32,000 bases of DNA from Methanobacterium sp. UBA279 (GTDB lineage Archaea; Methanobacteriota; Methanobacteria; Methanobacteriales; Methanobacteriaceae). Under the pieces are notes generated by a model that was given only the letters and a program-made list of their open reading frames with translations, was not told the DNA's origin and ran no database searches. The stretch is taken from the NCBI GenBank assembly GCA_002502855.1, contig DAQK01000046.1:20652-52651 (forward strand), written 5' to 3'. The position numbers and the translations under genes were made by a program. Shown one piece after another: positions 13,763 to 21,170 of this stretch; the stretch's first letter is position 1, and every line of letters starts with the position of its first letter.

Positions 13763-13791
13763 ATCTTTTTTTAAGAAACTAAAATGAATTA

Positions 13792-13941
13792 TAACTTATA
13801 AGTTAAAAGTTCTAATTGATAAACTTTGAAGTTTTAAGTTATAAGTATTAAAGAGATTTAAAAGGGAAAAATTACAAATAAAGGAATAATCATCGGATTA
13901 AAAATCATATTAAATTTGCTTAAAAGTTATAAGTTATAAGG
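13792..13941. repeat. Cluster of AAGTTAT-heptad / AACTT-AAGTT palindromic repeats
   Basis: 14-bp perfect palindrome TAACTTATAAGTTA (13792-13805). AAGTTCTAA (13807-13815). AAGTTATAAGTA (13836-13847). Tandem AAGTTATAAGTTATAAGG (13924-13941) runs into the ferredoxin SD. Confidence 0.8.
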
Positions 13942-13949
13942 AGTTTTAG

Positions 13950-14177
13950 ATGAGGATCGAAGTTGACAAGGAGAAATGCATCGGCTGTGGAACATGCCAG
14001 GAGATCTGTCCCAAAGGTCCTCGGATCTGGAAGATTAAAGATGGGAAAGCAGAGGCAGGTAACCTACAATACTGCCATGTATGCACCCTTTGTGCATCAA
14101 AATGTCCTGTAGGAACTATACACGTAATAAGAGATGGTCAAAATGGAGAGAAAGAAAAAGTTAGCGAGAAAGACTAG
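13950..14177 (+). CDS. 2x[4Fe-4S] ferredoxin
   Basis: 75 aa with two CxxCxxCxxxCP motifs (CIGCGTCQEICP and CHVCTLCASKCP). SD AAGGAG lies 6 nt before the ATG. Confidence 0.85.
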   Translation: MRIEVDKEKCIGCGTCQEICPKGPRIWKIKDGKAEAGNLQYCHVCTLCASKCPVGTIHVIRDGQNGEKEKVSEKD

Positions 14178-18566: not shown

Positions 18567-19694
18567 ATGACTAATTTGAGCAAAAAATTGGAAATTCTGG
18601 GTGAAAGTGCCAAGTTCGACCGGTGCAGCTACATCAACACCAACGTCGATAACTTCCTGACCAAGCAATTGCCAGGCATATACAATGCCAGCACCAGAGA
18701 TGGGTGCACAGTGCCTCTATTTAAAGTATTGATGACCAATAAATGCTCAAATGACTGTAGATACTGCATTAATCATAATAAACATAGTTTTAACCGGGTA
18801 GAATTTTCACCTGGAGATGTTACTTCCATTTTCCTTGATTATTATAATAACAGGTTGGTTGAGGGTTTATTTTTAAGTTCTGGCATCCCCCAAGATCCAG
18901 AATATTCCATGGAAAACATGGTGGAAGTGGCCCATAAATTAAGGATGGACCATGGATACCAGGGGTATATCCATTTAAAGATTCTACCAGGCAGTCCCTA
19001 TGATTTAATTAAAAGGGCTGTTAGTTTAGCAGACCGGGTTAGCATCAACCTGGAAGCAGCCACCCCTGAAGGAATGGAGAATCTTTCCAGCACCAAAAAT
19101 TACGATACAGATATTTTAAGGCGTATGAAATGGATTAAAAGGCTTCTCAAGGGTAACAAAGAATTTTCCCCCTCAGGGCAGACCACCCAGTTTCTGGTAG
19201 GTGCTGGTGATGAGACAGACCAGCAGATCCTGGAAAAGGCCAACTGGTTATATGAAAAGATGGACCTTAAAAGAAGTTATTTCAGCCCATTTGAAGCAGT
19301 CAAAGACACACCACTGGAGTCCCATGAAGAACCACATCCAAAAAGGAGTCCAAGGCTATATCAGGCTGATCACCTCCTGAATTCCTATGGATTTGACCTT
19401 AAAGAATTGGTTTTTGATGACGATGGTAACCTGAATTTGGACAGTGATCCTAAATATGTGGCAGCCCAGGCACATGAGGAACACTTCCCAGTGGAGATCA
19501 ACGAAGCATCCTATAAAGATCTTCTCAGAGTCCCGGGAATAGGTAAAATATCAGCCAGAAGAATCATCCAATCTAGAAAACTGGGTAAAAACTTCCTTAA
19601 ATTAGAAGAGCTAAAAAATATAGGCGTGGTCATTAAAAGGGCCGAACCATTCATTAAATTAAATAAAAATTACCAGACCACCCTTGAATTTTAA
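18567..19694 (+). CDS. Radical SAM protein of the putative DNA modification/repair family (rSAM + C-terminal helix-hairpin-helix)
   Basis: CSNDCRYC (Cx3Cx2C) cluster motif. Motifs LEILGESAKFD, EGLFLSSGI, GYIHLKILPG, SGQTTQFLVGA and RLYQADHLL. C-terminal HhH LLRVPGIGKISARRI. The pattern matches the bacterial family usually paired with a UDG-like protein. Confidence 0.75.
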   Translation: MTNLSKKLEILGESAKFDRCSYINTNVDNFLTKQLPGIYNASTRDGCTVPLFKVLMTNKCSNDCRYCINHNKHSFNRVEFSPGDVTSIFLDYYNNRLVEGLFLSSGIPQDPEYSMENMVEVAHKLRMDHGYQGYIHLKILPGSPYDLIKRAVSLADRVSINLEAATPEGMENLSSTKNYDTDILRRMKWIKRLLKGNKEFSPSGQTTQFLVGAGDETDQQILEKANWLYEKMDLKRSYFSPFEAVKDTPLESHEEPHPKRSPRLYQADHLLNSYGFDLKELVFDDDGNLNLDSDPKYVAAQAHEEHFPVEINEASYKDLLRVPGIGKISARRIIQSRKLGKNFLKLEELKNIGVVIKRAEPFIKLNKNYQTTLEF

Positions 19695-19743
19695 TTTTTA
19701 GATGTTATTTTAGGTATTAATCTACTGTTATATGTGATAAGAG

Positions 19744-19794
19744 ATAAGTTATAAGTTTTAACAGGTACACTTATAACTAATAAGTTCTAACTTA
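19744..19794. repeat. AAGTTAT-heptad repeat cluster downstream of the parA cassette
   Basis: ATAAGTTATAAGTT (19744-19757). Its perfect 10-bp inverted copy ACTTATAACT (19769-19778). TAAGTTCTAACTTA (19781-19794). Positions 19768-19790 match 13793-15 at 19/23. Confidence 0.8.
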
Positions 19795-20217
19795 CAACCC
19801 CTTTTCCTCGAATATTTTCCAGATATCCGGATGCCTATCCTTCACAGCTTCCTCAATGAGGAGTGATGCCTCATTGCTTATGCTGAACTCAGGTTTTGTT
19901 TTCTTTAAAAACCTTAAAACTGCAGCTGATTTAGCAGACCATAATGATATCCGTGGATTCTTATGCACTTCCAAAAGTACCGCATCGACGATCTTATCAT
20001 CTACGCTGGGAGTTGATGATTCCTGTATTTGTGTGCTAACATCAGTTTCAGCAGTTTCTGCTTTTTTATCTTTTGAGATTTTTGCAGAACCAGTGCTTTT
20101 TGCCTGTTTTTTCCCTGATTTTTTTGGTCTTTCCTCTTCCTCATCTAGGTAATCCTTCCTTATAAGGGCGTCTAATCCTTTACCAAGGGCATTTTCCGGC
20201 CTTTTTCTGGGTGTCAT
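19792..20217 (-). CDS. ParA partner protein: ParB-like N-terminal peptide, charged linker and small C-terminal helical domain (SegB-like / mini-ParB)
   Basis: The N-terminus MTPRKRPENALGKGLDALI resembles the bacterial ParB/Spo0J N-terminus (basic-GLGRGLDALL). A K/E/S-rich linker follows. The C-terminal ~65 aa look helical. The ATG overlaps the parA stop (ATGA at 20214-20217). Confidence 0.6.
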   Translation of the reverse strand: MTPRKRPENALGKGLDALIRKDYLDEEEERPKKSGKKQAKSTGSAKISKDKKAETAETDVSTQIQESSTPSVDDKIVDAVLLEVHKNPRISLWSAKSAAVLRFLKKTKPEFSISNEASLLIEEAVKDRHPDIWKIFEEKGL

Positions 20218-20999
20218 TTGTTGTCACCCTCACCTTCCATTTGAATGATCTCCTTAGCCAGTTTCTGGTAGGCCTCTGTACCGCTGCATTTTTCATCATA
20301 CAGGATACAGGGGATTCCATGGCTGGGTGCTTCCGCTAACTTAACATTACGGGGAATGGTGGTTTTGAAGATGTGCTCAGTCTCTCCAAAGTACTGTTTC
20401 ACGTTGTTGTAAACATCCCTGCCCAGACGGGTCCTGGAATCATATAAAGTTAAAAGAATTCCCTTGATGGGTGAAGGGCTGTTCAACCTGGTTTTTACCA
20501 GATCCATGGCCTGGATTAAATCAGCCATCCCCTCTAATGCATAAAACTCCGCTTGTATTGGTATGATAACGCTGTTAGAAGCTACAATGGAATTTAAAGT
20601 CAACAATCCAAGGGAGGGTGGGACATCTATGAAAATGTAATCGTAGTTATCAACATATCCATCAACAGCTTCTTTTAAAATTGAATGGGGGCCTATAGTT
20701 TTACTTAATTCCAGTTCTGCCCCGCTTAAGTCGATGTTACTAGGTAACAGATCCAGTTGAGGTATGCTGGTTTGTATTATGGACTCTTCTACGGTGCTTT
20801 GCCCAGATAGAACTGAATAGATAGTATTTATTTGGTTATTTTTCTCCATTCCCAACCCCGTTGTGGCGTTACCCTGGGGATCCATATCTATTACCAGAAC
20901 ATTTCTATCTGAAAGGGCCAGTGCTGCTGCAAGGTTTACTGCAGTGGTAGTTTTCCCACATCCTCCCTTCTGGTTTAATATAGCTATAATCTCGCTCAT
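20214..20999 (-). CDS. parA: Soj/ParA-type partition ATPase (SegA-like)
   Basis: Deviant Walker A ILNQKGGCGKTTTAVNLAAALA. Motifs VIDMDPQGNAT, FIDVPPSLGLLTLN and IPRNVKLAEAPSHG. The preferred start is ATG at 20999 (MSEII), preceded by GGGAGG. The track start 21017 adds 6 aa. Confidence 0.9.
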   Translation of the reverse strand: MSEIIAILNQKGGCGKTTTAVNLAAALALSDRNVLVIDMDPQGNATTGLGMEKNNQINTIYSVLSGQSTVEESIIQTSIPQLDLLPSNIDLSGAELELSKTIGPHSILKEAVDGYVDNYDYIFIDVPPSLGLLTLNSIVASNSVIIPIQAEFYALEGMADLIQAMDLVKTRLNSPSPIKGILLTLYDSRTRLGRDVYNNVKQYFGETEHIFKTTIPRNVKLAEAPSHGIPCILYDEKCSGTEAYQKLAKEIIQMEGEGDNK

Positions 21000-21022
21000 A
21001 AAACAATCCTCCCACATTTAGT

Positions 21023-21056
21023 GATAACTTCTAAATGATAAGTTATAAGTTATAAT
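21023..21056. repeat. AAGTTAT-heptad repeat cluster in the parA promoter region
   Basis: GATAACTT (21023-21030) is inverted relative to ATAAGTTATAAGTTATAA (21038-21055). The cluster lies 40-57 nt upstream of the parA ATG and overlaps the only TATA-like sequence. Confidence 0.8.
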
Positions 21057-21170
21057 ATAAATATTTATCGTTGAATAGGGGTTTATTTAAGCTGATTTTG
21101 TAGAAAATTAGGAGTAATTAAAAAGGAATATTTTAGAGAAATTTTAATGAAAAAAATAAAAAACTTATCC

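Follow-up and report, generated by a model that had tools for sequence, protein, structure and literature searches.

Two described partition systems are closest to the locus analyzed here. In S. solfataricus, chromatin immunoprecipitation sequencing (ChIP-seq) and footprints of the centromere-binding protein SegB gave the site TCTAGA-S-TCTAGA (S being G or C), with the core AGA-S-TCT almost invariant, and Sulfolobus has ∼40-50 SegB sites, mostly intragenic and distributed chromosome-wide (bioRxiv 10.1101/2025.02.07.637068). The S. acidocaldarius site, segS, is [AGNGTNN]3 and lies directly upstream of segA (PMC12139799). The crystal structure of SegB shows one dimer per half-site, with dimers stacking into a superhelix (PMC8682754). 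For Euryarchaeota, Kabli et al. (SegB ChIP study, bioRxiv 10.1101/2025.02.07.637068) detected no SegB motif in the surroundings of Thermococcus segAB, and the euryarchaeal motif was suggested to be degenerate. In bacteria, the ribbon–helix–helix (RHH) ParB protein omega of pSM19035 binds one dimer per 7-bp heptad, direct or inverted; its arrays overlap par promoters, and at least four contiguous heptads are needed to activate ParA (PMC9499535). In RHH systems of type Ib, operator and centromere are the same DNA (PMC9499535). Here we analyzed a 32,000-nt stretch of DNA (the window; G000:C41:20652-52651) from Methanobacterium sp. UBA279, whose assembly comprises 2.12 Mb in 54 contigs with 40% G+C. 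The window contains a segAB cassette and three arrays (A, B and C) of a heptad repeat. In our judgment these arrays are quite probably the cognate centromere-like sites (segS) of the SegB encoded at 19792-20217, with array C acting also as an autoregulatory operator.

An earlier sequence-only reading of the window had placed one 12-mer on both sides of the parA cassette. This 12-mer, AAGTTATAAGTT, is indeed found at 19746-19757 and 21040-21051, and a third exact copy is present at 13924-13935, all on the plus strand. Also present are the two inverted copies described there, the perfect 10-mer ACTTATAACT at 19769-19778 (array B) and GATAACTT at 21023-21030 (array C). When the repeats are read in register, the unit proves to be a heptad, TTATAA+S, whose hexamer is palindromic and has a single G or C after it. 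One instance, TTATAAGTTATAACTTATAA, is perfectly palindromic over 20 nt. Phased heptads number 24 across the window and make up three arrays, all of them intergenic: A (13789-13940), B (19735-19798) and C (21022-21056). The repeats as first described therefore stand, with arrays that are longer than was recognized: five heptads in C, 4+4 in B and 5+3+3 in A. The features of the locus are as follows.

13789-13845, unstranded: array A1, five phased heptads at 13789-13823 (scores 7, 7, 6, 5 and 5 of 7), a 1-nt slip, and three more at 13825-13845
13920-13940, unstranded: array A2, three heptads, TTAAAAG TTATAAG TTATAAG
19735-19798, unstranded: array B, four heptads at 19735-19762, an 8-nt spacer, and four heptads at 19771-19798
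19792-20217, minus strand: segB, 141-aa SegB-family centromere-binding protein (by homology; phmmer and alignment)
20214-20999, minus strand: segA/parA, 261-aa Walker-type ParA ATPase of the Soj type (Pfam AAA_31, 1.8e-63)
21022-21056, unstranded: array C, five contiguous heptads, TGATAAC TTCTAAA TGATAAG TTATAAG TTATAAT
21054-21061, minus strand: TATA-like box TTTATATT, putative element of the segAB promoter (by the archaeal TATA consensus)

Counted from the segA ATG, array C occupies nucleotides 23-57 upstream, with the segA Shine–Dalgarno sequence on one side of it and the TATA-like box on the other. The position claimed earlier for the upstream repeat holds, at 39-57 nt from the parA ATG at 20999, as does its overlap with a TATA-like sequence: TTTATATT shares 3 nt with the last array C heptad. 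The box belongs to a conserved block, AAATATTTATATTATAACTTATAACTTATAA. Array C is a candidate operator and centromere array. SegB should repress segAB, because the array begins at the margin of the TATA-like box (21054-21061) and runs across the expected transcription start, ∼24 nt downstream. Array B sits between the convergent 3' ends of segB and a radical-SAM/HhH gene, its final heptad overlapping the segB stop codon. Because there is no promoter to regulate at this place, the arrays would seem to be more than operators. Array A1 is directly beyond the 3' end of a flavoprotein gene, and array A2 adjoins the Shine–Dalgarno sequence and ATG (13950) of a ferredoxin–hisB operon.

The repeats are exclusive to this region of the genome. 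Allowing up to one mismatch, the 12-mer occurs 8 times in the window versus 0.37 expected, a count reached by 0 of 100 shuffled sequences, in keeping with the earlier view that its recurrence is far above chance. All three exact copies in the whole 2.12-Mb assembly are inside the window. At up to one mismatch the assembly has 30 sites, of which 8 fall in one 7.2-kb stretch and the others are scattered singletons; this is unlike the uniform spread over hundreds of intergenic regions that the sequence-only reading had named as evidence for a generic element. The clustering near the par locus or origin that it had proposed to look for genome-wide is seen both here and in relatives, where arrays cluster round the cassette, near cdc6. 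Triple heptads (at least 18 of 21 positions) number 10 in the genome and all 10 are in arrays A, B and C, versus none in a first-order Markov genome. For near-perfect double heptads (at least 13 of 14 positions), 9 of the genome's 10 copies are within the three arrays. The confinement of triple heptads to the arrays, with the genome counts of the 12-mer, rules out a generic REP or promoter element.

The arrangement is conserved across Methanobacteriaceae. Of the 121 family genomes sampled, 114 have SegB, with all 27 genera covered. We compared 29 orthologous loci of ∼3.4 kb each (ParA identity 66-98%). Heptad arrays were found within 300 nt upstream of segA in 29/29 and within 300 nt downstream of segB in 28/29, and none was found inside genes or elsewhere within these loci. 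The element upstream of segA forms a single conserved block, AAATATTTATATTATAACTTATAACTTATAATTTAGAACTTATAA. Orthologous cassettes in 29 relatives thus carry repeats at the same two positions, one half of what the sequence-only reading had suggested checking. The other half, co-variation of repeat and protein across genomes, was not found: the heptad and the SegB beta-strand (KNPRI-S/T-LWS) are both kept across genera. Looser spacing or scattering of the heptads is seen in genus g3 only. In its conservation across genera, the heptad motif is like bacterial parS.

Whole genomes of 15 relatives from 12 genera were searched with the pattern TTATAASTTATAASTTATAA, allowing up to two mismatches. This gave 133 matches, versus 22 for the reversed pattern used as control, and 109 of the 133 were within 50 kb of segB, a span of ∼4% of a genome. 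An array was present within 2.5 kb of segB in 14 of the 15, and departures from the clustering belong mostly to genus g3. Array A is syntenic in G063, G025, G061 and G068 (three genera), with both sub-arrays between the flavoprotein gene and ferredoxin–hisB, 7-11 kb from segB; in these four relatives the counterpart of array A2 ends 10-16 nt before the ferredoxin start. An extra array, syntenic in genera g26 and g13 (L035:1781-1822, L036:2042-2083, L039:2218-2252), lies between genes for proteins of 310 and ∼275 aa, on the cdc6 side of segAB; no such array was found at the equivalent place in the window's genome. In the window's genome and five others, the best-scoring cdc6 is 31-44 kb (1.2-2.1% of the genome) from segAB, and extra arrays in relatives are mostly on the cdc6 side. 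Going by work on Methanothermobacter, we take the origin in Methanobacteriaceae to lie beside cdc6.

A second, divergent cassette of G085 (L045, G085:C1:2073800-2077000) encodes a ParA of 256 aa and a SegB-like protein of 100 aa with the sequence NQPRISFW. As a natural control, this cassette too is flanked by TAACTTA/TAAGTTA units, present both upstream of parA and downstream of segB. G025, G061, G075 and G088 have SegB paralogues that are weaker and lack arrays. A much expanded array precedes segA in genera that are more distant (G066 L041:3228-3759, ∼530 bp of phased heptads; G006 L042:3124-3250), where SegB is also longer, at 173-248 aa.

The partner protein fits such a site. The 141-aa product, which the sequence-only reading had cast as the candidate binder of the repeats, is homologous to SegB, a protein that binds centromeres site-specifically: phmmer aligned residues 49-138 with S. 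solfataricus SegB in the PDB (7DUV, E=1.3e-7). SegB structures were its only PDB matches, and searches of Pfam and NCBIfam gave no family. The published SegB signature is K/R-D/N-P-K/R-I-G/T-V/L-W-S (PMC12139799); here it reads KNPRISLWS and departs from this at one position (S for G/T). Three parts can be told apart in the protein: an N-terminal ParB-like motif, A10-R20 (ALGKGLDALIR), a linker rich in K and E (29-68), and an RHH-type domain at the C-terminal end (74-141). Across 32 aligned homologues, the N-terminal A-L-G-K/R-G-L-D-A-L-I-R is invariant, the linker variable and the C-terminal domain almost invariant. The linker differs in length and sequence even among close relatives, whole proteins being 108-178 aa, which fits the expansion-prone middle region reported for SegB of Sulfolobales. 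An AlphaFold2 monomer model has the linker disordered at 29-68 and, in the C-terminal part, a helix, a short extended segment at the position of the RHH strand and three helices. This order of elements is the order reported for SegB.

Yen et al. (PMC8682754) established SegB as an RHH protein and named the residues by which the S. solfataricus protein contacts DNA or its dimers stack. We mapped these through the phmmer alignment and took invariance from the 32-homologue alignment, with the following result.

K52 of S. solfataricus SegB (base-contacting): R89 here, invariant; a K-to-R change reported for euryarchaea by Yen et al. (PMC8682754)
W56 (base and phosphate contact): W93 here, invariant
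P72 (dimer–dimer stacking): P109 here, invariant
K75 (base contact): S112 here, invariant but changed

The segA product matches ParA/Soj proteins of the PDB over its full length (3e-70 to 3e-56) and is 48-51% identical to Soj of Firmicutes, versus a match to S. solfataricus SegA (7DUT) of 4.4e-16 over residues 4-165 only. Judged by sequence, it is a bacterial Soj-type ParA, far closer to Soj than to S. solfataricus SegA. The N-terminus of SegB has a bacterial look as well. Two ParBs adjoining the closest bacterial Soj genes begin ...GKGLGRGLDAVF... and ...AKGLGRGINVFF..., with the motifs GLGRGLDAVF and GLGRGINVFF; the counterpart in the SegB of this locus is ...NALGKGLDALI..., with GLG(R/K)GLDSLIP in genera that are more distant. 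ParB binds and activates ParA through a short aliphatic/basic motif with a central R/K, described in that source only in words (PMC12462528). The SegB peptide appears to resemble this ParA-binding class of ParB, a direct likeness drawn from few sequences. Searches with the 29-aa peptide (phmmer versus PDB), with a profile of 31 N-termini (versus PDB) and by tblastn versus plasmids gave no matches, and a literature search for the motif 'LGRGL' found nothing.

The segA TGA overlaps the segB ATG (ATGA, 20214-20217). The segA start is the ATG at 20999, with GGGAGGA at 21007-21013, and is the same in all orthologues aligned. An in-frame ATG at 21017, given as the start in a mechanical list of open reading frames, was rejected: it would swallow the Shine–Dalgarno sequence, and the orthologue alignments and GGGAGGA favor 20999. 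The locus is chromosomal, between thrS and housekeeping genes, with conserved synteny.

Two neighboring genes deserve mention. Convergent on segB is a radical-SAM plus HhH gene (18567-19694, plus strand; NCBIfam TIGR03916 rSAM_link_UDG, E=1e-103). Its adjacency to segB is kept in every genus examined (L033-L042, L046, L047), with no UDG-like partner adjoining, and a functional link of this protein with the partition locus is possible. Farther off, at 13920-14177, array A2 stops 10 nt short of the start codon (ATG) of a gene for a 75-aa 2x[4Fe-4S] ferredoxin, which overlaps hisB (14134) out of frame. SegB occupancy at array A2 might gate the ferredoxin–hisB operon; the position of the array may reflect a regulatory link or merely a tolerated landing pad.

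The mechanism we infer joins these elements as follows. One SegB RHH dimer would read one hexamer half-site, and dimers would stack on at least four contiguous heptads via the conserved proline of the alpha2-alpha3 loop, giving extended nucleoprotein complexes at A, B and C. Occupancy would be cooperative, with up to ∼24 SegB dimers over the three arrays. The N-terminal ALG(K/R)GLDALIR peptides of bound SegB would then contact nucleoid-bound ParA-ATP (SegA) and stimulate ATP hydrolysis, so that the origin-proximal region is moved apart after replication. SegB on array C would repress segAB (autoregulation), and binding at array A2 may likewise affect the ferredoxin–hisB operon.

A bolder proposal, on which we are evenly balanced between belief and doubt, is that these arrays, and nothing else, constitute the true centromere of the Methanobacteriaceae chromosome. 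In this proposal, 3-5 origin-proximal arrays would be bridged by SegB into a single partition complex of ∼7-40 kb, served by a chimeric machine (Soj motor, ParB-type peptide, archaeal SegB reading head) that acts in a parS-like manner in rod-shaped cells. If so, the system would work like bacterial parS and unlike the genome-wide SegB sites of Sulfolobus, it would run against the link drawn between SegB and spherical shape, and ferredoxin–hisB expression would be tied to SegB occupancy via the conserved leader array.

Several observations weigh against the assignment of the arrays to SegB as its centromere-like sites, in addition to two that are taken up below with the rivals they favor. The hexamer is TCTAGA in S. 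solfataricus and TTATAA here, differing at 4 of 6 positions (inner CTAG versus TATA), and the match is one of architecture, not of sequence. The SegB monomer model is modest (pLDDT 61, pTM 0.23), and Foldseek of this model versus the PDB gave no match at E<1, a search that is uninformative for an obligate-dimer RHH protein with a long disordered linker. Within genus g3, G002 has strong arrays scattered up to 740 kb from segAB (C1: 1310250, 1340832, 2303817-2313857), and G047 has only degenerate, spaced TATAACTT units at segAB. The scatter in G002 is nearer to the dispersed SegB sites of Sulfolobus. Finally, the compared genomes are kin and the search pattern was taken from the motif itself, so tallies such as the 109 of 133 matches near segB overstate independence. 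Heptad frequencies tabulated from the orthologous loci are circular, since the pattern itself picked the heptads, and carry no weight here.

The strongest rival, though an unlikely one, would keep SegB as the binder and deny the arrays any centromere role, SegB acting solely as a regulator of segAB, ferredoxin–hisB and a few neighbors. RHH proteins are commonly repressors, and the place of array C between the TATA-like box and the Shine–Dalgarno sequence suits an operator. So does array A2, which adjoins the ferredoxin ribosome-binding site in five genomes; this array and the extra arrays are just upstream of genes. A regulator alone does not explain array B, which sits between convergent 3' ends here and in 28/29 relatives, nor why arrays cluster near cdc6 as parS does near oriC. 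An invariant N-terminal peptide of the ParA-binding type, and the translational coupling of segB to a Soj-type ParA, also speak for partition. Moreover, operator and centromere are one DNA in type Ib RHH systems (PMC9499535).

It is less probable still that the arrays are bound by some other factor, such as TBP/TFB, a nucleoid-associated protein or the neighboring radical-SAM/HhH DNA-binding protein. TTATAA is itself TATA-like, which makes TBP or another AT-binding factor conceivable, and synteny of the radical-SAM/HhH gene with segB extends to all genera examined. Yet ordinary promoters lack phased heptads, with 0 matches outside the three arrays, and a palindromic hexamer plus G/C at a 7-bp period is the layout shown experimentally for SegB. 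The second cassette of G085, moreover, has related units with no radical-SAM neighbor among its listed open reading frames. We regard as very improbable that the arrays are replication-origin elements, either ORB- or iteron-like sites for Cdc6/Orc1: they are iterated, AT-rich, intergenic and on the same contig as cdc6, but cdc6 is 31-44 kb off in six genomes, the arrays bracket segAB instead, and the unit fits the architecture of a SegB site. Equally hard to credit is a generic repeat with no specific partner, whether a REP/MITE-like element, a hairpin by which array B would terminate transcription, or a chance product of AT-rich sequence. The perfect 10-bp inverted repeat of array B could form a hairpin between the convergent genes, but this hairpin is not conserved, relatives having direct tandem units at that place (e.g. 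L029). In addition, the repeat is confined to three loci of the genome, ∼0 are expected from shuffles or the Markov null, and the heptad unit is kept across 12 genera.

SegB homologues of Methanobacteriales are already in the literature (PMC12139799). In the searchable literature we did not find the heptad sequence in this context, or the DNA site, its distribution, the Soj-type motor or the ParB-type peptide for methanogens. Chromosome segregation in Euryarchaeota is essentially uncharacterised, and a genome-unique, family-conserved heptad site offers a testable candidate centromere for methanogens, as well as a candidate cassette by which their shuttle vectors might be stabilized through partition. 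Together with the S. solfataricus protein it makes a natural specificity pair for RHH–DNA recognition, TCTAGA with K52/K75 versus TTATAA with R89/S112. SegB is near-universal in the family (114/121), and Methanobacteriaceae are mostly rod-shaped, which is at odds with the proposed tie of SegB to a spherical shape. Published ideas hold that SegB goes with spherical form and that it came to Methanobacteriales by transfer from Sulfolobaceae (PMC12139799); the Soj-type ATPase and ParB-type peptide bear on these too.

Among known systems, the type I par and SegB models put forward by the sequence-only reading divide: SegAB/segS and the RHH/heptad type Ib systems fit this locus, and type Ia systems with a helix–turn–helix (HTH) ParB do not. 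Like Sulfolobales SegAB (S. solfataricus SSO0034/SSO0035, S. acidocaldarius; SegB 7DUV/7DV2, SegA 7DUT), the locus has a gene for a ParA-type ATPase followed by one for a small RHH SegB with an unstructured N-terminal tail, and a site directly upstream of segA. Like the S. solfataricus site, that site combines a palindromic hexamer with one G/C and has a 7-bp period and an A-S-T junction, and the base-contacting Trp and loop Pro of S. solfataricus SegB are conserved. The differences are that K52 and K75 of S. solfataricus SegB are R89 and S112 here, that the ATPase is Soj-like rather than S. solfataricus SegA-like (3e-70 versus 4e-16), that the N-terminus of SegB bears a motif apparently of bacterial ParB type, and that the sites are all intergenic, in 3-5 clusters near segAB and cdc6, unlike those of Sulfolobus. 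From archaeal origins, where ORB repeats adjoin cdc6/orc1, the locus differs in that its arrays are 31-44 kb from cdc6.

Bacterial ParABS (Soj/Spo0J/parS) shares with this locus a Soj-type ParA, a partner whose N-terminal LG(K/R)GLDA appears similar to that of ParB, and few sites clustered round the operon near a replication-initiator gene. The partner here, however, has no ParB/Srx CTPase or HTH domain (Pfam, NCBIfam), and the putative centromere consists of heptads in an array, for which no spreading by a sliding clamp is expected. The canonical 16-bp palindromic parS, TGTTNCACGTGAAACA, has 0 matches in the genome at up to one mismatch, and identity with bacterial parS is rejected on this ground; at two mismatches there are 4, all on other contigs.

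The delta/omega system of pSM19035 (type Ib, with parS of WATCACW heptads) differs in belonging to a bacterial plasmid, whereas the locus here belongs to the chromosomal core of an archaeal family (114/121 genomes). Its heptad is unrelated in sequence, the unit here being palindromic apart from the G/C, and a PDB search detected no similarity of omega to the 141-aa SegB. The two nevertheless share an RHH centromere-binding protein (here by homology) whose N-terminal tail activates ParA (putatively so here), and a ParA of small size (261 aa here) without an N-terminal HTH, as is usual for type Ib. They share also contiguous 7-bp units, direct and inverted, that overlap the par promoter, 4-5 of them contiguous here. 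By analogy, omega of pSM19035 would be the mechanistically closest bacterial case.

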